From assembly GCA_028695735.1 (NCBI GenBank), contig JAQVIJ010000001.1, forward strand, positions 582,447 to 646,446: DNA of 64,000 nt. Direction: 5' to 3'. The notes below the pieces were generated by a model that worked only from the letters and a program-made list of their open reading frames with translations, ran no database searches and was not told where the DNA came from. This document shows, piece after piece, positions 23,734 to 61,885 of this stretch; positions within the stretch are counted from its first letter, which is position 1; every line of letters starts with the position of its first letter. Position numbers and translations under genes: made by a program. The DNA is from Deltaproteobacteria bacterium (GTDB taxonomy: Bacteria; Desulfobacterota; Dissulfuribacteria; Dissulfuribacterales; DYLC01).

Positions 23734-25065
23734 ATGAAGTTCAAACAGTTGGGTTTGTTGTGCCTGTGCGGCTGCCTTTTGGCGTCTGCCGCCTATGGCG
23801 CAGCCAAGTCAGAGCCTGCCAAGCCGGCCAAGGCCAAGACCATGGCGGAACTGGCAGCCAAGTACGACTCCAAGTCGTGTGAGGAATGTCATCCGGATGT
23901 GTATGAGCAGTGGCAGAAGTCCATTCACTCCCGTTCCCTTTTGGGTACGGGTCGCACCGCTCCCACCATTCTCACGGCCATTGATATGGGTATCAAGAAG
24001 TTCCCATACTCTGGCGTGAAGGAAGACAAGGACCTGGAGGTGAGACACTTTATGCTCTGCGCTAAGTGTCACCTGCCCCAGATAGATGAGGCAAGTGACG
24101 AGGTGGTGAGGGAGATCATCGCTACCATCAGGGCCTGGCAGAAAGAGGATAATGATGCCAAGAGAGAGGAGTTGGAAAAAAAGATCTCCAGCGTAAATAT
24201 CGGCTGTATGGTCTGTCACAACAAGAAGGCCATCATTCACAAGTGGGCGGACGGCTATCCACAGCCCGATACCGTCTATGGTTCCAAGGCAGGCAAGCAT
24301 GAACACCCCAAATTTGACAAGATGGCCAAGGCACCGGCCCTGGGTGAGTCCATCTTTTGCGGCCAGTGCCATGGTTCAGGCCCGAACTTCGAGTTGGATG
24401 AGCCTTCACAGTGCGCCACACTCTATGGCAGCTATCTCTTTGCCTATGTGCCTGAGGGCGGGCATGAGAGCTGTCAGCAGTGTCACATGAAAAAATCAGG
24501 TTTGGGTCATGACATGGAGGCCTATCGCAGCGAGGCCATGAGAAAGATGGCCGTCAAGACAGAGGTGGATGGCAGGGCATTGTTCTGGAGAAAGAACAAG
24601 AAGGAAGGCGTGGTGCCCATGGGTATTATCAACGTGGAGCTTTTGAACAAGGCTGGGCACGTCATTCCGGATGGGTGACCTACTCCTAATAGAGTGGTCC
24701 TGGAAGTGACCGCCAAAACCAACGATGGAAAAGAGATATACAAGGAACAGAAGATATATATGCCGTTCCCAGGCCGTTTGGGCCGGGGAGAGGAGATGGG
24801 CCGTGGTCCTTATGAAAAGAGCGGCCTGTTGAGGGAGACGAGTCTGCCGCCTCTTCGTCCTGTAAAGGAGACCTTCGAGATACCATTCCCATATGTGGAT
24901 ACCACCAAGGACGGCAAGCCTTACAGGGAGCTGGCCAAGGACGAGATGACTGTGTCCGTCAAGCTCTGGTATGTGCCGTTCGGTGAGTTCGATGGCAACG
25001 AGGTCCTCTTCTTCAGTGAGGATAAAAAACTCGAGCTCAAAGGTGAATGGATGTGGCATAATTAG
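23734..25065 (+). CDS. Secreted pentahaem c-type cytochrome, predicted selenoprotein (in-frame UGA at 24676-24678 read as Sec315)
   Basis: ORFs 23734..24678 and 24694..25065 share one frame and are split only by a TGA. The product has a signal peptide and five CXXCH motifs (CEECH, CAKCH, CMVCH, CGQCH, CQQCH). The 443-aa read-through product is colinear with the 446-aa paralogue at 56261..57601, including across the junction motif. Confidence 0.65.
24694..24713 (+). other. Candidate bacterial SECIS stem-loop
   Basis: GUGGUC (24694-24699) pairs with GACCGC (24708-24713): 5 Watson-Crick pairs plus 1 G-U. The 8-nt loop is CUGGAAGU. The loop starts 24 nt after the U of UGA, within the spacing I recall for bacterial SECIS elements. 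Confidence 0.4.
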
Positions 25066-25094
25066 ACATTAACCCCTTATAAATTCAAAGATGA

Positions 25095-54080: not shown

Positions 54081-54267
54081 TAACCCCACCCCGTCCCTCC
54101 CCTTGTCAGGGGAGGGTGATAACCTGCAACTCGCGCCGGAAGATAACACTATCCGTGCCATCGTAGGGGCGACCGGCCGGTCGCCCCTACTTCCCCCCTG
54201 ATCTTCCCCCCCCCTGATAAGGGGGGATTGAGAGGGGTTGGGGGGATTGAGGGGGGTTGTTTTTGAT
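54081..54267. repeat. Composite G/C-tract hairpin repeat element, copy B, with an embedded 28-nt perfect palindrome
   Basis: TAACCCCACCCCGTCCCTCCCCTTGTCAGGGGAGGGTGATAACC (54081-54124). Palindrome GTAGGGGCGACCGG/CCGGTCGCCCCTAC (54163-54190). Then CTGATAAGGGGGGATTGAG(A/G)GGGGTT with a partial internal duplication, ending GTTGTTTTTGA as in copy A. Confidence 0.85.
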
Positions 54268-54356
54268 TCTGCCTCATGGTTGTTATTCCCTCACCAAATA
54301 GGCATGGTGGCTATGGGGATCGAAAAGAGAAAATTTTAGGAATGCTTGTTTTTTGC

Positions 54357-54385
54357 TTGACATGGCCAATCAAATATGCTTAATA
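54357..54385 (+). promoter_or_regulatory. Candidate sigma-70 promoter of the perR-like gene
   Basis: TTGACA (54357-54362), a 17-nt spacer, TTAATA (54380-54385). Confidence 0.5.
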
Positions 54386-54397
54386 ATAATCATTCAC
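54379..54397. promoter_or_regulatory. Fur/PerR-box-like operator overlapping the perR -10 element (autoregulation candidate)
   Basis: CTTAATAATAATCATTCAC matches 14 of 19 positions of the classical Fur box GATAATGATAATCATTATC. Confidence 0.4.
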
Positions 54398-54414
54398 ATC
54401 AAGGGGGTGTAAAT

Positions 54415-54825
54415 TTGAACACAAGTAGTGGAAAATTACGTAACACAGCCCAACGGACTATTATTTTAAATGCCTTAAGGGGCTTAAAAACCCATCCGAC
54501 TGCGGATGAGCTGTATGAAGTGGTCAAAAAAGAGATGCCGAAGATCAGCCTTGGCACCGTCTATCGCAATCTGGTGATGCTGGCAGAGATAGGCATGATT
54601 CGAAAGCTGGAGACAGCCGGCAAGCAGATGCGTTTTGATGGCGACATCTCTGCCCATGTGCACATCAGGTGTAGCAGATGCGGCAGAGTGGATGACATCT
54701 GGGCAGACCCCATATCCATTCCAGAGCACATGAAGACCATTGACTTTCGCGGCTACCAGGTGACCGGCTATGCCCTGGAATATGAGGGAATCTGTCCTGA
54801 TTGCGCCAAAAAAGGCATGAACTGA
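54415..54825 (+). CDS. perR: Fur-family peroxide-responsive repressor (PerR-like)
   Basis: Fur fold (ISLGTVYRNLVMLAEIGMI) with HIRCSRCG...CPDC sites. The ORF-track ATG at 54376 lies inside the predicted promoter, so I propose TTG 54415 (or GTG 54409) after the AGGGGG RBS. Confidence 0.75.
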   Translation: MNTSSGKLRNTAQRTIILNALRGLKTHPTADELYEVVKKEMPKISLGTVYRNLVMLAEIGMIRKLETAGKQMRFDGDISAHVHIRCSRCGRVDDIWADPISIPEHMKTIDFRGYQVTGYALEYEGICPDCAKKGMN

Positions 54826-54959: not shown

Positions 54960-55535
54960 ATGAAAAAACTCAAAGGAACCCAGACCGAACGCAACATACT
55001 GACCGCCTTTGCCGGTGAATCCCAGGCACGAAACCGCTATACCTTTTTTGCCGGCCAGGCCAAGAAGGATGGCTATGTGCAGATAGCCGATATCTTTGAG
55101 GAGACGGCCAACCAGGAGAAGGAACACGCCAAGAGGCTCTTTAAGCTGTTGGAGGGCGGCGAGGTGGAGATTCAGGCCGCCTTTCCCGCCGGCATCATCT
55201 CCAATACCTATGACAATCTCATAGCCGCAGCCAATGGAGAAAACTATGAACAGACCATCATGTATCCTGGTTTTGCAAAGATAGCCATAGAGGAGGGCTT
55301 TCAGGAATTGGCCTGTATCTTTGAGGCCATAGCCGTGGCCGAACGCCAGCACGAGAAGCGCTATAGGGAGCTGGCTGCCAACATAGTGGCGGATCGGGTC
55401 TTCAAGCGGGATACAGAGGTGGTCTGGCGCTGCCGCAACTGCGGTTATCTGCATAAGGGTAGTGCCGCTCCGGAAAAGTGCCCTGCCTGTGCCCATCATA
55501 AGGCACATTTTGAGCTTTTGGCAGAGAATTGGTAG
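54960..55535 (+). CDS. rbr: Rubrerythrin
   Basis: 191 aa. Diiron four-helix bundle (E..E..H pairs: [29 protein letters not shown]) and a C-terminal rubredoxin-like CRNCG...CPAC. Confidence 0.95.
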
Positions 55536-55593: not shown

Positions 55594-56232
55594 ATGTGTG
55601 AGTTTGTTACCAACGAGGCACCTAACTTCAAGGCAACCGCTGTAATGGCCGACAATTCCTTTAAGGAGATCAGCCTGTCGGACTATAGGGGTAAGTATGT
55701 GCTCCTGTTCTTCTATCCGCTGGATTTTACCTTTGTCTGCCCTTCCGAGATACTGGCCTTTGACAGGGCGGTTGACGAATTTCAAAAGAGAAACTGTGAG
55801 GTGATCGGTGTGTCTGTGGACTCCCATTTCACTCACTTGGCCTGGAAGGAGACCCCTGTGGAAAAGGGCGGCATCGGTTCTGTGAGATTTCCATTGGTGG
55901 CCGACCTGTCCAAGTCCATCTCCCGTGACTATGGCGTGCTTTTGGAAAGCGGCATAGCCCTTCGCGGCCTGTTCCTCATAGACAAGGACGGCATTATTCG
56001 CCACATGCTGGTCAATGACCTGCCCCTGGGCAGAAGCGTGGATGAGGCCCTGAGAGTCCTGGATGCCCTCCAGTTTGTGGAGAAGCACGGAGAGGTCTGC
56101 CCTGCCAACTGGAAGCCTGGCGAAGAGGCCATGAAGCCTACCAAGGAGGGGGTGGCGGAGTACCTGGCCAAACATGCCAAGCCGGCTGCCTCCTGTTGCT
56201 CCACCGGCGGCGGTTCCTGTTGCTGTTCATAG
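55594..56232 (+). CDS. Typical 2-Cys peroxiredoxin (AhpC/Prx1 type) with a Cys-rich C-terminal tail
   Basis: I trimmed the start to ATG 55594 (GGAGG at 55581). The peroxidatic site is DFTFVCPSE and the resolving site is GEVCPANW. An extra tail follows: [18 protein letters not shown]. Confidence 0.9.
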
Positions 56233-56260
56233 TTACAGATTCCATTCATAAGGAGGACAT

Positions 56261-57601
56261 ATGAAGAGACTTCTATCAGTTATGGCTGTGAGTGCTGTGG
56301 TGGCGGCGCCTCTGTTTGTAGGCGCGGCAGAGATGGGCAAGTTCAAGTATGACGACTTTCAAAAACCCACTGACTGTGGCATGTGCCATACAGAGATATA
56401 TCAGGAGTGGAAGCAGGCCATGATGTCCCAGTCTTTTACCCATGAGTGGGATGAGGTGGAGTACTTCAAGTTGGCCCTGCCTCATTCTCAAAAATTGGAG
56501 AAGGTCTCTGGCGTAAAGGGGGGGTGTGTCGCCTGCCATGGGCCGCTGGCCTTTTTGTCAGGTGATATTCCGCCCAAGCCCGTAAAGGCCGGAACGCGCG
56601 CCAACGAAGGTGTCTCCTGCGAGATATGCCATAACATCACAGGCTCCACCGAGCAGACGCCCTTTAACTTCAGCTTTGTGATTCAGCCAGGGGATGTAAA
56701 GCAGGGGCCCAGAAAGGATGTGAAGTCTCCGGGCCATGGCGTGAATTTCTCTGAGTTTACTCGCAGTCCTGAGCTCTGTGCCACCTGTCACGATGAGCAG
56801 AGCCCTTACGGGGCATGGGTCAAGGAGACCTATCGGGAATGGAAGGCAGGCCCTTACAGCAAAGAAGGTGTGCGTTGTCAGGACTGCCACATGTATCGGG
56901 CGCCTGGCGTGCCTGGCATGGGTGGTCAGGAGCGCCCTGACATGGCGCATCACACCTTTCATGGCAGCCACTTCCCCAGCAAGCTGGCAGGGGCCATTGA
57001 TCTGGCCCTCTATGCAGAAGAGGATGAGGTGTCGCCTGGTAAGGGCCTCACAGTGCGTTCAGAGCTCTTTAACGGCAAGGCAGGGCATTATGTGCCATCC
57101 GGTTCCACTGAGGAGCGCATGCTCTGGTTAGAGGTGTGGCTCACCGATGCCAAAGGCAAAAGATATGCCTTAAAGGTGCAGCCCAAGGGCTTTAAGGGTG
57201 AGGAATACACGGTGGCTGATTCCAAGGCCATGGCCTATCAGGACATAGGTGAGATCATGGACCTGGCTAACTTTAAGGGCCTGAAGCGGGACGGCAATGT
57301 GCCCGATGGCTCCCGTATCTTTAGGCGCCCGTTCTTCAATCCCAAGGGCGAGATGACCGTAGCCCAGTGGTATACTGCCAAAAACGATGTGGTGGACTAT
57401 CGCATAGGGCCTCGTGAGACCAAGATTGAACACTTTAAGCTGGAACTGCCCAAGGATGTGGCAAAGGGCCAGGCCACTGTGACGGCACGGCTCCTCTATA
57501 GCCAGATTCCCAGTTCTGTAGGTGAGTTTTTCAAGCTCTCCAAGGAGGAATACGCCCCCATTTTGGTCAATGAGGCCAGAGTGATGGTGAATGTAAAATA
57601 G
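56261..57601 (+). CDS. Secreted pentahaem c-type cytochrome (paralogue of the Sec-cytochrome at 23734)
   Basis: 446 aa. Signal peptide ([10 protein letters not shown]) and five CXXCH motifs (CGMCH, CVACH, CEICH, CATCH, CQDCH). The conserved motif is [22 protein letters not shown], followed by a C-terminal non-haem domain. Confidence 0.8.
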
Positions 57602-57616
57602 TTGTTACAAAAGGCA

Positions 57617-57645
57617 CTTCGGCCTGTCTTTGGGGCAGGCCGAAG
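57617..57645 (+). other. Intra-operon 10-bp stem-loop between the cytochrome gene and dfx
   Basis: CTTCGGCCTG / CAGGCCGAAG with a 9-nt loop. No T-run follows. Confidence 0.5.
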
Positions 57646-57686: not shown

Positions 57687-58061
57687 ATGACCGAAAGATT
57701 ACAGATTTACAAGTGTGAGATCTGTGGAAACATGGTGGAGATGGTGCATACAGGCGCGGGCCAGCTGGTCTGCTGTGGTCAGCCCATGAAGCTCATGACA
57801 GAAAATACAGTGGATGCGGCTAAGGAAAAGCATGTCCCTGTCATCGAAAAGGTAAGTGGCGGCTATAAGGTCAAGGTGGGCAGTGTAGCCCATCCCATGG
57901 AGGAAAAACACTACATCGAGTGGATCGAGCTCATTGCGGATGGCAAGGCATATAGGGAATTTTTGTCCCCTGGCCAGGCACCTGAGGCCTTTTTCTGCAT
58001 TCAGGCCGACACCGTGACCGCACGGGAGTTCTGCAATCTCCACGGTCTCTGGAAGGCATAA
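57687..58061 (+). CDS. dfx: Desulfoferrodoxin (2Fe superoxide reductase)
   Basis: I trimmed the start to ATG 57687 (AGGAGG upstream). The N-terminal desulforedoxin motif is [27 protein letters not shown]. The neelaredoxin domain has [14 protein letters not shown] and a C..H site. Confidence 0.9.
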
Positions 58062-58141
58062 AAGGGCGTTTTGTTGACAAGGCGGCGGCAGTTATCTGCC
58101 GCCATGTGAAATGGGGTTTTACCCATAAATAAGGAGTGCTT

Positions 58142-58663
58142 ATGTTGAGTCCTAAATTAGAAGAGGCATTAAATCAGCAAATAAACGCCGAATTGTATTC
58201 GGCATATCTATATTTTTCCATGGCAACCTATCTTTCTTCCATTGATTTGGCCGGCTGTGCCCATTGGATGCATGCCCAGACGCAGGAGGAGCTGCTTCAT
58301 TCCTCCAAGATGTATGAGTATGTAAATGAGCGAGGCGGCCGCGTGGTTTTGAATGCAATAAAGGCCCCCAAGACTCAATGGGCCTCCCCCCTTGAGGTGT
58401 TTGAAGACGCCTATCGGCATGAGCAGCATGTGACGAGCCTCATAAATAGCCTCATGGAGTTGGCTATCTCAGAAAAGGACCACGCCACTCAGATCTTTTT
58501 GCAGTGGTTTGTCTCCGAACAGGTGGAGGAAGAGGCCTCTGCCAATGGTGTGGTGCAGCGTATGAAGCTGGCTCAGGCCTCGCCTGGCGGGCTTTTTATG
58601 ATAGACAAGGAGTTATCCACTCGTCCCGTGCCTTTTGTCCTGGCAACAGCCAATAAGGCCTAA
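58142..58663 (+). CDS. ftn: Ferritin (non-haem, Ftn-type)
   Basis: 173 aa from ATG 58142 (AAGGAG 5 nt upstream). Ferroxidase residues sit in NAELYSAYLY, EELLHSSK and QWFVSEQVEEE. Confidence 0.9.
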   Translation: MLSPKLEEALNQQINAELYSAYLYFSMATYLSSIDLAGCAHWMHAQTQEELLHSSKMYEYVNERGGRVVLNAIKAPKTQWASPLEVFEDAYRHEQHVTSLINSLMELAISEKDHATQIFLQWFVSEQVEEEASANGVVQRMKLAQASPGGLFMIDKELSTRPVPFVLATANKA

Positions 58664-58686: not shown

Positions 58687-59082
58687 ATGAGCAGACCTGA
58701 AGATATGTGGCAGTGTCAGACCATCAATTGCGGTTACATCTATGACCCTGACAGAGGTGATAGAAAGGGCAAGATTCCCAAGGGGACCCGCTTTGAGGAC
58801 CTCCCCGATGACTGGAAGTGCCCTGTATGTGGGGCGGGTAAGTCCATGTTCAGGCCATTGGCCGGCCCTGGCTCGGTGATGGAGCGGGATAAACAGGAAA
58901 CTGTGGCCCCACAGGCCGATGCAGGTCCTAAGTATAGATGCAATGTCTGCGGCTATATCTATGACCCGGCGGTGGGGGATGCCTCACAGGGTGTGGCGCC
59001 TGGCACTGCCTTTGAGGCACTGCCTGAAAATTGGAAGTGCCCTGTGTGTGGCGCAAGCAAGGAGGAGTTTGAGGAGATCTGA
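58687..59082 (+). CDS. Tandem rubredoxin (CX4C-type domain plus canonical CX2C domain)
   Basis: 131 aa. Domain 1 is [14 protein letters not shown]...WKCPVCG, with four residues between the first Cys pair. Domain 2 is [12 protein letters not shown]...WKCPVCG. Confidence 0.85.
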
Positions 59083-59083
59083 C

Positions 59084-59437
59084 ATGACGGCCCAACGAAC
59101 GGTTATATTTGCGTTTAAGGGAGAGCCCATGTGTTTTATACATGTGCTTTTAAATGCCTTGGACATGCAGAATAAGGGCATGGCATGTGAGGTCGTTATA
59201 GAGGGTGAGGCCACCAAACTCCTGCCTGAACTGGAGCAACCATCCCATTTTTTGCATGACCTTTATACACAGGTCAAGACAAAGGGTCTGATAACGGCTG
59301 TGTGTAAGGCCTGTTCCAAGAAGATGGGGGTCCTTGAGCAGATTCAGGCCTTGAGTCTGCCTTTAAGTGACGAGATGTCAGGACACCCTTCCATGGCCAG
59401 GTTTATTTCACAGGGTTTTCATGTGATTGTAATGTAA
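59084..59437 (+). CDS. DsrE/DsrF-like (DrsE_2) small protein
   Basis: 117 aa, starting 1 nt after the rubredoxin stop. The pattern is VIFAFKGEPMCFIHVLLNAL...VVIEGEATKL...ITAVCKAC. Confidence 0.5.
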   Translation: MTAQRTVIFAFKGEPMCFIHVLLNALDMQNKGMACEVVIEGEATKLLPELEQPSHFLHDLYTQVKTKGLITAVCKACSKKMGVLEQIQALSLPLSDEMSGHPSMARFISQGFHVIVM

Positions 59438-59465: not shown

Positions 59466-60662
59466 ATGATTACAGAGATCAAGAAGGATATCTATTGGGT
59501 GGGCGCCATTGATTGGACCATCAGGGACTTTCACGGCTACTCCACCTATGAAGGCACCACTTATAACGCCTATCTCTTGAAGGACGAGAAGACGGTACTC
59601 TTTGACACGGTGAAGAAGTCCAAGATGAGTGACCTGGTGCACCATATCCGTTCCCTTACCGATCCTCAAAAGATAGACTATATCGTGGTAAACCATGTGG
59701 AGATGGATCACTCAGGTTCATTGCCTGAGATGATAGACCTCATCAAGCCTGAGAAGGTGATCTGTTCCAGCATGGGCAAAAAGGCCCTGTTGGACCACTT
59801 TCATCGAGAGGATTGGCCCTATGAGGTGGTAGCGCCGGGTCAGGTGATCAGCGTGGGCAAGCGTTCCATTCAGTTCATCGAGACCCGTATGCTGCACTGG
59901 CCTGACAGCATGTTTTCTTATATTCCAGAGGAAAAGCTCCTCATCTCCAGCGATGCCTTCGGCGAACACTGGGCCACCAGCGAACGCTTTGACGACGAGG
60001 TGGACTTCACCACCTTGATGCAGCACAATGCCAAGTATTATGCCAACATACTGCTGCTCTACTCACCCCTGGTCGCTAAGCTCATCGAAAATGTGAAAAA
60101 GCTCGGCCTTCAGATCGATATGATCGCCCCTGACCACGGCCTCATCAAGCGTAAACATGTGGCCGAGATCCTGCAGGCATATGCAGACTGGGCCAACCAC
60201 AAGGCCAAGAAAAAGGCGGTGGTGGTCTATGACACCATGTGGCACAGCACAGAGATGATGGCCAAGGCAGTGGCGGACGGCCTCATGCGTGAGGGCGTGA
60301 GCGTAAAGCTCATGGACCTGCAGGTCTGCCACAGAAGCGATGTGATGACAGAGGTCCTGGACGCCAAGGCGGTTGTCCTGGGCTGTCCGACCCTGAACAA
60401 CGGCCTGCTGCCACGCATGGCGGGCTTTCTCATGTATATGCGGGGGCTTAAGCCAGGCGGAAAGATCGGCGCTGCCTTTGGTTCCTATGGCTGGAGCGGC
60501 GAGGCGGTGAAGCTCATGAACCAGGCCATGGAGGAGATGAAGTTCGATATCGTGCACGAGGGGATTCGCGTAAAATATGTCCCTGTGCACGAAAACCTCA
60601 AGGAATGCGTGGAATTGGGCAAAAAGGTCGGACAGGCTGTAAAGGCCGCTTTAGGAGAGTAA
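59466..60662 (+). CDS. Flavodiiron protein (rubredoxin:oxygen oxidoreductase / FprA type)
   Basis: 398 aa. Metallo-beta-lactamase-like diiron motif NHVEMDHSGS and a C-terminal flavodoxin domain (VVVYDTMWHSTE..., GCPTLNNG). Confidence 0.9.
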   Translation: MITEIKKDIYWVGAIDWTIRDFHGYSTYEGTTYNAYLLKDEKTVLFDTVKKSKMSDLVHHIRSLTDPQKIDYIVVNHVEMDHSGSLPEMIDLIKPEKVICSSMGKKALLDHFHREDWPYEVVAPGQVISVGKRSIQFIETRMLHWPDSMFSYIPEEKLLISSDAFGEHWATSERFDDEVDFTTLMQHNAKYYANILLLYSPLVAKLIENVKKLGLQIDMIAPDHGLIKRKHVAEILQAYADWANHKAKKKAVVVYDTMWHSTEMMAKAVADGLMREGVSVKLMDLQVCHRSDVMTEVLDAKAVVLGCPTLNNGLLPRMAGFLMYMRGLKPGGKIGAAFGSYGWSGEAVKLMNQAMEEMKFDIVHEGIRVKYVPVHENLKECVELGKKVGQAVKAALGE

Positions 60663-60997
60663 TGCCTATGCGTATCAATATAGACAAAAATGTGGTGGAA
60701 TTTATTCCTGAAAATCAGCAGGAGACCGCCTCCTTGGAGGTGCTTTGGCGCATGGTCTTGGACTGTGCCGGCGGCAACAACAAGAGTTTGAGCCCCATCG
60801 GCGAGTATGTGCCACAAAAGGAGAACCTGGCTCGCTTTGTGATAGAGGGGGCTGCCGGCGGAAAGACCGTGTTTTCCGAGATGGTATCTGAGGCAGAGTG
60901 CACCTACCTTTGCACCATCTGTAATAAATATATCCATATACATGTAGGGCAGGCCATTCCATACTGTTGTGGGCGCCTGATGGAGCCTGTGGATTAA
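60662..60997 (+). CDS. Hypothetical protein with a C-terminal desulforedoxin-like Cys4 domain
   Basis: 111 aa. The ATG overlaps the FDP stop (TAATG). The C-terminus YLCTICNKYIHIHVGQAIPYCCGRLMEP parallels the Dx motif of dfx in this window (YKCEICGN...VCCGQPM). The N-terminal ~75 aa has no motif I recognise. Confidence 0.55.
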   Translation: MPMRINIDKNVVEFIPENQQETASLEVLWRMVLDCAGGNNKSLSPIGEYVPQKENLARFVIEGAAGGKTVFSEMVSEAECTYLCTICNKYIHIHVGQAIPYCCGRLMEPVD

Positions 60998-61318: not shown

Positions 61319-61885
61319 ATGGCCAAATTCAGACACCTTTCCCATCAGCACATCAAAAAGGCCTTTTTGACTCAGGGGGTTGAGGAGTTGCTGGCTCAAT
61401 TGTCGGTTTTCCCCGTGAAAACTGCCCTTCATTCGGTGCTCTCCGCCCTCTATTCCACAGATGAAGCCGTTCGCTTCAAGTCAGTGACCCTCTTTGGCCT
61501 TTTGATGTCCAAATTGGCTCAAGAGGATATGGAGGCCGCCCGGCAGGTGATGCGCAGGCTGATGTGGAGCCTGAATGACGAATCCGGAGGTATCGGCTGG
61601 GGTGCACCCGAGGCCATGGCAGAGGCCATGGCCATGGACGCAGGTTTGGCACAGGAATATGCGCATATCCTGCTTTCCTATGTATGGGAGGAAGGGAACT
61701 ATTTGGAGTACCTACCCTTGAGACGAGGGGCGCTTAAGGGCATTGCCAGGCTTGCATGCGCCAGACCCCAGTTGTTAAATGCCCTTCAGGCACAGGAGCG
61801 CCTGCAACCATACCTAAATGATGCAGACGAGGAGTCCAGAGAGGCTGCTCAAAGCGGTCTTGCTTGTTTGAGACAGGCCAAATGA
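61319..61885 (+). CDS. Helical-repeat (HEAT/armadillo-like) hypothetical protein
   Basis: 188 aa, predicted all-alpha. No catalytic motif. The stop overlaps the start of the downstream sigma-54 activator (ATGA). Confidence 0.5.
   Translation: MAKFRHLSHQHIKKAFLTQGVEELLAQLSVFPVKTALHSVLSALYSTDEAVRFKSVTLFGLLMSKLAQEDMEAARQVMRRLMWSLNDESGGIGWGAPEAMAEAMAMDAGLAQEYAHILLSYVWEEGNYLEYLPLRRGALKGIARLACARPQLLNALQAQERLQPYLNDADEESREAAQSGLACLRQAK

Follow-up and report, generated by a model that had tools for sequence, protein, structure and literature searches.

MccSep of Geobacter sulfurreducens (ExtKL, GSU2937/2936, PDB 9WT8/9WT9) forms homotetramers in the periplasm, each subunit with five haems (Mihara et al., Sci Adv 2026, PMC13510729). 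Haems 1, 3, 4, and 5 have bis-His ligation, haem 2 is held by His122 and Cys239, and the distal pocket of this catalytic haem holds a selenocysteine (Sec), Sec325, carried by a mobile loop of the Ig-like domain (PMC13510729). The enzyme reduces polysulfide and, less well, selenite, is needed for S0 respiration, and shows no turnover of nitrite, sulfite, thiosulfate, or tetrathionate (PMC13510729). The U325C and U325A variants are nearly inactive, Arg83 and Lys372 are needed for activity, and the five-haem core superimposes on the core of NrfA-type enzymes (PMC13510729). The superfamily has been named the PHC family, and its members are placed among the potentially catalytic cytochromes, with a haem that is pentacoordinate (Digel et al. 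2025, PMC11976967); the same paper recalls an earlier proposal (Kjeldsen 2019) that fusions of PHC and truncated haemoglobin in cable bacteria are a periplasmic O2 reductase. Here we describe a relative of these proteins, a pentahaem c-type cytochrome of 446 aa, predicted to be exported, which is encoded at positions 56261–57601 on the forward strand of a 64,000-nucleotide stretch from a Deltaproteobacteria bacterium of the order Dissulfuribacterales. The whole of this stretch, called the window below, also encodes a paralogue of the MccSep type. The cytochrome represents a Ser-type subfamily of the PHC/c552/MccSep superfamily, and genes of this subfamily belong to the core of a Fur/PerR-linked oxidative-stress operon, in the orientation of their neighbours.

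To our knowledge, the O2 defence of strict anaerobes is understood almost wholly as cytoplasmic, through superoxide reductase (SOR), rubredoxin (Rd), rubrerythrin (Rbr), and flavodiiron protein (FDP). The periplasm is the first compartment that O2 reaches and is rich in autoxidisable low-potential cytochromes and hydrogenases. The genomic context of the cytochrome was surveyed in one genome per species using tblastn with the window proteins and unbiased clustering of open reading frames (ORFs). This yielded 173 loci, of which 80 were kept; counts over 81 include the window. Flanks of no less than 2.5 kb upstream and 4 kb downstream counted as adequate, and 42 loci qualify. At least two of rbr, prx, dfx, ftn, rd, fdp, and perR lie beside the cytochrome gene in 38 of the 81 loci and in 26 of the 42 with adequate flanks. 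In these 38 loci the genes of this reactive oxygen species (ROS) cluster have the order and strand seen in the window, perR-rbr-prx-cytochrome-(TAT-sor)-dfx-ftn-rd-fdp, where the gene in parentheses encodes a twin-arginine (TAT) SOR. Cytochrome identity among them falls to 62%, PerR identity falls to ~45%, and the outer flanking genes differ, which indicates that the block is maintained as a unit. An independently annotated contig carries the same order under its Pfam labels: FUR, wHTH, Rbr, Prx, cytochrome, SOR, Dfx, ferritin, Rd, FDP, and HEAT protein. Prx directly upstream is the most persistent neighbour and is kept even in the Thermodesulfatator clade, which is otherwise without the cluster. 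Only four of the 42 well-flanked loci have none of the ROS cluster, TAT-SOR, Prx, or other periplasmic-redox associations. A preliminary description, made from the window alone, had remarked on the embedding of the gene among oxidative-stress genes, and these counts show that the embedding recurs across genomes, often with TAT-SOR as the next gene.

TAT-SOR is encoded directly after the cytochrome, ahead of the cytoplasmic Dfx, in 18 loci (e.g., L010 6652–7101, L022 11323–11784, L085 7001–7447, and L083 507–935). The proteins are 148–153 aa long, match PF01880, carry a twin-arginine signal and all centre II ligands, and are one-iron enzymes of the TAT-SOR class of SORGOdb. TAT-SORs are a recognised class, known since 2011, without an identified electron donor (PMC3116461). 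The cytochrome/TAT-SOR pair recurs on an extra metagenome contig, where the SOR is only 45% identical. A reciprocal search starting from TAT-SOR returned only 12 close relatives, and all of those checked adjoin the cytochrome; because the search yields close relatives only, it is not an independent test of the pairing. The adjacent TAT-SOR supports a periplasmic role in oxidative-stress defence, since a periplasmic SOR depends on an electron donor in its own compartment and on removal of H2O2.

We tentatively favour, without calling it probable, a reading of the cytochrome as the periplasmic arm of ROS defence, acting as an H2O2/O2 reductase, as the electron donor of TAT-SOR, or as both. It would take electrons from the low-potential periplasmic cytochrome pool, and its haem-2 pocket would pass them to H2O2 and/or O2. 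Where TAT-SOR is co-encoded, the cytochrome may feed it electrons and remove its H2O2 product. A more far-reaching claim, which we consider doubtful, is that the subfamily represents a haem enzyme of a new class: a periplasmic multihaem reductase of H2O2/O2, without kinship to CcpA, that arose from the MccSep scaffold by loss of its Se/S chemistry. It would also be the missing TAT-SOR donor, the two forming a pathway from superoxide to water. If this were true, a periplasmic superoxide-to-water pathway of strict anaerobes would mirror the cytoplasmic Dfx-Rd-Rbr pathway of the same operon. A cytochrome fixed in an operon in dozens of sulfur-cycling genomes is a testable candidate for periplasmic protection and for the TAT-SOR donor.

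Several results count against a role in ROS defence. Outside the clade that carries the ROS cluster, the cytochrome adjoins other periplasmic redox proteins: HAO-like octahaem cytochromes in 19 loci (PF13447, two types with eight CXXCH each), cytochrome P460 in four (PF16694), and a Tat-exported SorA-like molybdenum enzyme in three. Examples of these neighbours lie at L032 11383–12846, L003 4823–6106, L054 1477–2016, and L026 2627–4018. A shared electron carrier fits such a range of unrelated periplasmic neighbours at least equally well. On the cytochrome tree, the loci with the ROS cluster group in a single large clade and are therefore not independent observations. A k-mer scan upstream of rbr and perR in 28–31 loci found no convincing palindrome or conserved PerR operator, and the window has no TAT-SOR gene in its 64 kb. 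With six invariant candidate distal ligands (Met55, His61, His159, His231, His237, and His276) available to five haems, every haem could be six-coordinate. In MccSep, too, the conserved non-motif His number six, against four bis-His haems.

These results bear on the main rival reading, in which the cytochrome would be a non-catalytic periplasmic electron hub of the c3 or c554 kind that serves whichever redox enzyme is co-encoded, with the partner encoded elsewhere in the case of the window. The variety of periplasmic neighbours speaks for a hub, as do the matches of the haem domain to the Pfam models for c554, c7, and c3 and the supply of invariant His and Met, which is enough for five six-coordinate haems; very high conservation could stem from multiple docking surfaces. 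In about half of the ROS-cluster loci, nevertheless, the cluster has no gene for a periplasmic partner; the window and its closest relatives (L001 and L002), which are without TAT-SOR, are among these loci. The strongest constraint falls on loops of the MccSep-type catalytic pocket rather than on generic surfaces, and a simple carrier would hardly be expected to have an Ig-like domain of 200 residues whose insert is 35% invariant. On balance, we judge the hub somewhat unlikely.

The HAO-like and P460 neighbours also raise the question of nitrogen chemistry. Multihaem enzymes that share this five-haem core can reduce both reactive oxygen and reactive nitrogen species, a precedent that counts for the preferred ROS reading. 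NrfA mediates defence against H2O2, NO, and hydroxylamine stress in Wolinella, and c554 of nitrifiers is at once the partner of HAO and an NO reductase, combining electron carriage with a reactive five-coordinate haem. By analogy, the cytochrome might detoxify reactive nitrogen (NO, hydroxylamine, or nitrite) or serve as redox partner of HAO-like proteins or P460, with the link to ROS being secondary and running through FDP. The precedent of c554, the presence of FDP in the operon, and the 19 HAO-like and four P460 loci would fit this reading, and the cytochrome resembles c554 in its match to PF13435, which is above the cut-off (32.5 vs 20.8 bits, residues 39–124). It differs from c554 of nitrifiers, which has four haems and no Ig-like domain and serves ammonia oxidation. 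The most persistent neighbours (Prx, Rbr, Dfx, and TAT-SOR) are all ROS-specific, no HAO-like or P460 gene occurs in the 64 kb of the window or at its closest relatives, and MccSep, the only assayed relative, is without nitrite activity (PMC13510729). A nitrogen role is improbable in view of these points.

Comparison with MccSep bears on whether the cytochrome could be catalytic and on which substrate. Both proteins have a secretory (Sec-type) signal peptide. They share the order of their five CXXCH motifs, an N-terminal haem cap followed by an Ig-like domain, a length of ~445 aa, and an N-x-(K/H)-A-G-H-x-x-P-x-G motif directly ahead of the active-site residue. The cytochrome and the MccSep-type paralogue are 24% identical by BLASTP, with an hhalign probability of 99.4%. 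The cytochrome differs from MccSep in the residues on which that enzyme depends and in genomic context, sulfur respiration for MccSep and ROS defence for the cytochrome. Ser282, invariant in 24 of 24 family members, takes the place of Sec325 in the alignment. A 12-residue gap covers the loop that bears the Cys239 ligand, and no Cys lies between haem motifs 4 and 5. Arg83 is aligned with a gap and Lys372 with Thr372, both in regions where the alignment is moderately reliable, and the distal-type His74 aligns with Met55, which is invariant in the family of the cytochrome. In place of the catalytic Sec and Cys of MccSep, the cytochrome has a conserved Ser-x-Glu-Glu-Arg-Met loop and a Trp-Val-Lys hairpin. 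A weak match to NF040886 (multiheme c-type cytochrome (seleno)protein ExtKL) is the only one in NCBIfam; it scores 58.5 bits, where the cut-off is 250, and covers residues 118–326 only. The cytochrome was therefore rejected as an orthologue of MccSep, given this score, the lack of Sec or Cys at the U325 position, and the lack of the Cys239 loop. It is best described from its sequence as a distant homologue in a distinct, tightly conserved subfamily (62%–90% identity) from which the Se/S chemistry appears to have been removed.

A word-indexed search returned 1902 relatives of the cytochrome. The best 120 of these 1902 are all full-length (~446 aa) and 62%–99% identical to it; their hosts are mostly Thermodesulfobacteriota, including Dissulfurimicrobium, Thermosulfuriphilus, Thermodesulfatator, and many metagenome-assembled genomes, and they are annotated only as "multiheme c-type cytochrome" or "hypothetical". 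In an alignment of 24 sequences, 136 of 446 positions are invariant, with an uneven distribution. Residues 173–193 (56777–56839), the most conserved stretch of the family and the counterpart of the haem-2 Cys-ligand loop of MccSep, are 80% invariant, and residues 271–290 (NGKxGHxxPSGSxEERMLWL) are 60% invariant. The second segment includes the loop of residues 271–287 (57071–57121), with the superfamily-invariant His276 and with Ser282. Values are 36% for the haem domain overall, 35% for the insert at residues 307–386, and 0%–23% for the Ig-like strands. Because the two top segments match the Cys-ligand and Sec loops of MccSep, we infer that the haem-2 pocket was kept but chemically remodelled in this subfamily; in the c552/PHC/MccSep fold, this haem is covered by loops of the Ig-like sandwich. 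The conserved Glu284, Glu285, Arg286, Lys188, and His61 are plausible acid-base residues. The subfamily would then be a natural experiment in active-site exchange on the MccSep scaffold, solved only recently.

These comparisons also settle how far MccSep can be used as an argument for peroxide or oxygen chemistry. The preliminary description had suggested periplasmic peroxide or oxygen reduction, or electron delivery to it, as the work of the family, which is not supported: the Sec-bearing member is a polysulfide reductase, so the superfamily as a whole is not an oxygen/peroxide family, and the embedding among oxidative-stress genes applies to the present subfamily only. It had also placed catalysis near the conserved His and taken the existence of a Sec-bearing paralogue as support. 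The first idea is borne out for proteins of the paralogue type, where Sec325 of MccSep follows that His by six residues (PMC13510729). The second fails, as the cytochrome has Ser at the Sec position, is without the Cys-ligand loop, and scores low on the ExtKL model. MccSep shows that the scaffold can be an enzyme, not that the cytochrome reduces peroxide. Not every ExtKL-like pentahaem protein should be taken for a polysulfide reductase or a component of extracellular electron transfer.

A sulfur substrate has to be considered on the same evidence. The cytochrome could be an MccSep-like reductase of polysulfide, persulfide, or selenite, and the cluster a response to reactive-sulfur stress in sulfur-disproportionating hosts. 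Fold and superfamily are common to the two proteins, the hosts (Dissulfuribacterales/Thermodesulfobacteriota) are sulfur specialists, and a DsrE-like gene lies in the cluster. Sec325, the Cys239 loop, Arg83, and Lys372 are all missing, the genome retains a genuine MccSep at 23734, and in MccSep a change of U325 to Cys or Ala is enough to abolish nearly all activity (PMC13510729). With the catalytic residues missing and even U325C MccSep nearly dead, a sulfur role is very improbable, and we return to periplasmic ROS defence as the preferred reading.

An AlphaFold2 (AF2) model of the cytochrome, built on a 50-sequence alignment, has a pLDDT of 93.5 and a pTM of 0.89. Its haem domain is helical, and a beta-sandwich with a long ordered insert follows from residue ~246. 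In a Foldseek search of the PDB, only the low-potential penta-haem c552 5ZE8 matched the fold strongly (E = 1.5e-19, TM 0.62/0.71), and the remaining matches in this library cover the Ig-like domain only. The same entry is the sole PDB sequence match. This c552, from Thermochromatium tepidum, was reportedly described by Chen et al. in 2019. It shares the five-haem domain and the Ig-like domain with the cytochrome and differs in being 20% identical, in coming from a purple sulfur bacterium, and in having no tie to oxidative-stress genes. Pfam matches are limited to generic multihaem models (c554, c7, c3, and MtrC domains II/IV).

The superfamily is very large and varied in function; at 50% identity it falls into 2634 clusters (E ≤ 0.001). 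Its members share a motif of the form N-x-x-x-G-H-x-x-P-(T/S)-G...R, in which His276 and Pro279 are invariant among 50 diverse members and in a table of 118 sequences. His276 of the AGH motif is most likely an axial ligand of one of the bis-His haems. The residue at the Sec position is variable across the superfamily (S, L, V, I, or M), so a Ser there is unremarkable in itself. Ten longer relatives were checked for domain fusions, and no globin, SOR, or peroxidase fusion was found.

Membership in other groups of multihaem proteins was considered and rejected. The cytochrome is not an NrfA, as its five motifs are all CXXCH with no CXXCK and there is no PF02335 match at threshold. A dihaem peroxidase of the CcpA/MauG type was rejected in the lack of a PF03150 match at E ≤ 0.01, and OmcA/MtrC membership was rejected because the Pfam matches are generic multihaem ones only. 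CcpA/MacA are nevertheless a functional analogy, being periplasmic c-type haem proteins that reduce H2O2 with electrons from periplasmic cytochromes, with no sequence or family kinship to the cytochrome. The cable-bacteria fusion of lPHC and truncated haemoglobin was also rejected, as the cytochrome has no globin domain. The cable-bacteria proteins (sPHC/lPHC), likened here by description only, belong to the same superfamily and are the subject of the sole published proposal that ties it to periplasmic O2 reduction. They differ from the cytochrome in that their O2 chemistry is ascribed to the fused truncated haemoglobin, whereas the cytochrome is globin-free and lies in a PerR-type operon. The suggestion that the protein had not been described is correct in part. 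The fold (c552, 5ZE8), the PHC family (PMC11976967), and MccSep are published; a literature search of incomplete coverage found no description of the ROS-operon subfamily, of its pairing with TAT-SOR, or of pentahaem cytochromes with rbr/dfx/fdp clusters.

The cytochrome gene begins with an ATG that lies 4 nt after a strong Shine-Dalgarno sequence (AAGGAGG, 56250–56256, forward strand). Residues 1–23 (56261–56329) read as a Sec-type signal peptide with a predicted cleavage between VGA and AE and no lipobox Cys. The mature N-terminus would be AEMGKF; in alignment the AEMGK start is conserved among relatives and the preceding signal region is variable. The protein is thus predicted to be soluble, exported by the Sec route, and periplasmic. 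Five CXXCH motifs, all invariant in the family, are packed in a single N-terminal domain of ~220 aa: CGMCH at residues 39–43 (56375–56389), CVACH at 89–93 (56525–56539), CEICH at 120–124 (56618–56632), CATCH at 173–177 (56777–56791), and CQDCH at 206–210 (56876–56890). The KAGHYVPSG motif occupies residues 273–281, and the Ig-like C-terminal beta-sandwich with its large conserved insert, delimited by the AF2 model and by conservation, is encoded at 56996–57598.

The paralogue is encoded at 23734–25068 on the forward strand, with an in-frame TGA at 24676–24678. It has five CXXCH motifs, and reading through the TGA gives NKAGHVIPDG-U-PTPNRVV. The protein matches NF040886 over its full length (580.9 bits, cut-off 250) and MccSep in PDB 9WT8/9WT9 at 506 bits, and it retains the equivalents of Cys239, Sec325, and Arg83. 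It is predicted to be a periplasmic polysulfide reductase. In a test for a selenocysteine insertion sequence (SECIS), the hairpin after the TGA was no more stable than shuffled sequence (z = 0.02); the Sec assignment is based instead on the matches to NF040886, over the full length, and to the PDB entries. The gene lies outside any ext-type porin-cytochrome cluster, and its neighbours encode a SIS-domain protein and a small secreted repeat protein.

In the window, the operon runs on the forward strand. Upstream of the cytochrome are genes for a Fur-family, PerR-like regulator (54376–54825), which scores 105 bits on PerR models, under the equivalog cut-off; rubrerythrin (54960–55535), identified by profile matches; and an AhpC-type 2-Cys peroxiredoxin of the Cys type with a Cys-rich C-terminal tail (55594–56232). 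Downstream are desulfoferrodoxin, a cytoplasmic 2Fe SOR (57687–58061); ferritin (58136–58663); a double-domain rubredoxin (58687–59082); a DsrE-like small protein (59084–59437); and the FDP, an O2/NO reductase (59466–60662). These are followed by two genes that travel with the cluster, one for a small conserved Cys-motif protein (60668–60997) and one for a HEAT-like conserved protein (61319–61885). The N-termini of the eight neighbour products from the PerR-like regulator through the FDP were read and have no signal peptide, so the cytochrome is the sole secreted product of the cluster. This agrees with the preliminary description, as do its ORF, the five CXXCH motifs, the AGH motif, the beta-rich C-terminus, the kinship with the Sec protein at 23734, and the spacings to both adjacent genes. 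A gap of 28 nt, which includes the Shine-Dalgarno sequence, separates the prx stop at 56232 from the cytochrome ATG, and no terminator was seen between the two genes in a terminator scan or on reading the gap. The cytochrome gene ends 85 nt before the start of dfx. A perfect 10-bp hairpin (CTTCGGCCTG...CAGGCCGAAG, forward strand) lies in this interval at 57617–57645; it has no T-run and is therefore not a clear terminator, and it could be an element of RNA processing or stability or a weak attenuator. The promoter/terminator scan was at background level, and its matches fell within coding regions.

Variation in the neighbouring genes was noted in addition. The Prx directly upstream has a TGA at the peroxidatic Cys (D-F/Y-T-F-V-TGA-P) in 20 of 31 loci (L048 9168–9881, L075 8307–9029, and 18 further loci, e.g., L018, L020, L032, and L049), and the window copy has TGC. 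The TGA-bearing copies are predicted, from this codon, to be Sec-type, PrxU-like enzymes. The Cys-rich C-terminal tail of the window Prx (56190–56232) is common only to L001 and L002 and is missing in all other homologues. The DsrE-like gene starts one nucleotide after the rubredoxin gene and is kept in only seven of 80 loci. The small Cys-motif protein (~108 aa) has CxxC...CCG motifs and no Pfam match and is kept in 20 of 80 loci; a homologue also lies beside a 40%-identical outgroup cytochrome in L082, the other outgroup contigs being short. The HEAT-repeat-like protein is present in 34 of 80 loci. An 82-aa winged-helix protein with an N-terminal MACxC, absent from the window, is encoded between perR and rbr at L070 8180–8428 and in 12 other loci. 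The 469-nt gap before perR in the window contains a G/C-rich repetitive stretch (~54100–54270) with repeated GGGGGGATTGAG units and a GGGGCGACCGGCCGGTCGCCCC palindrome.

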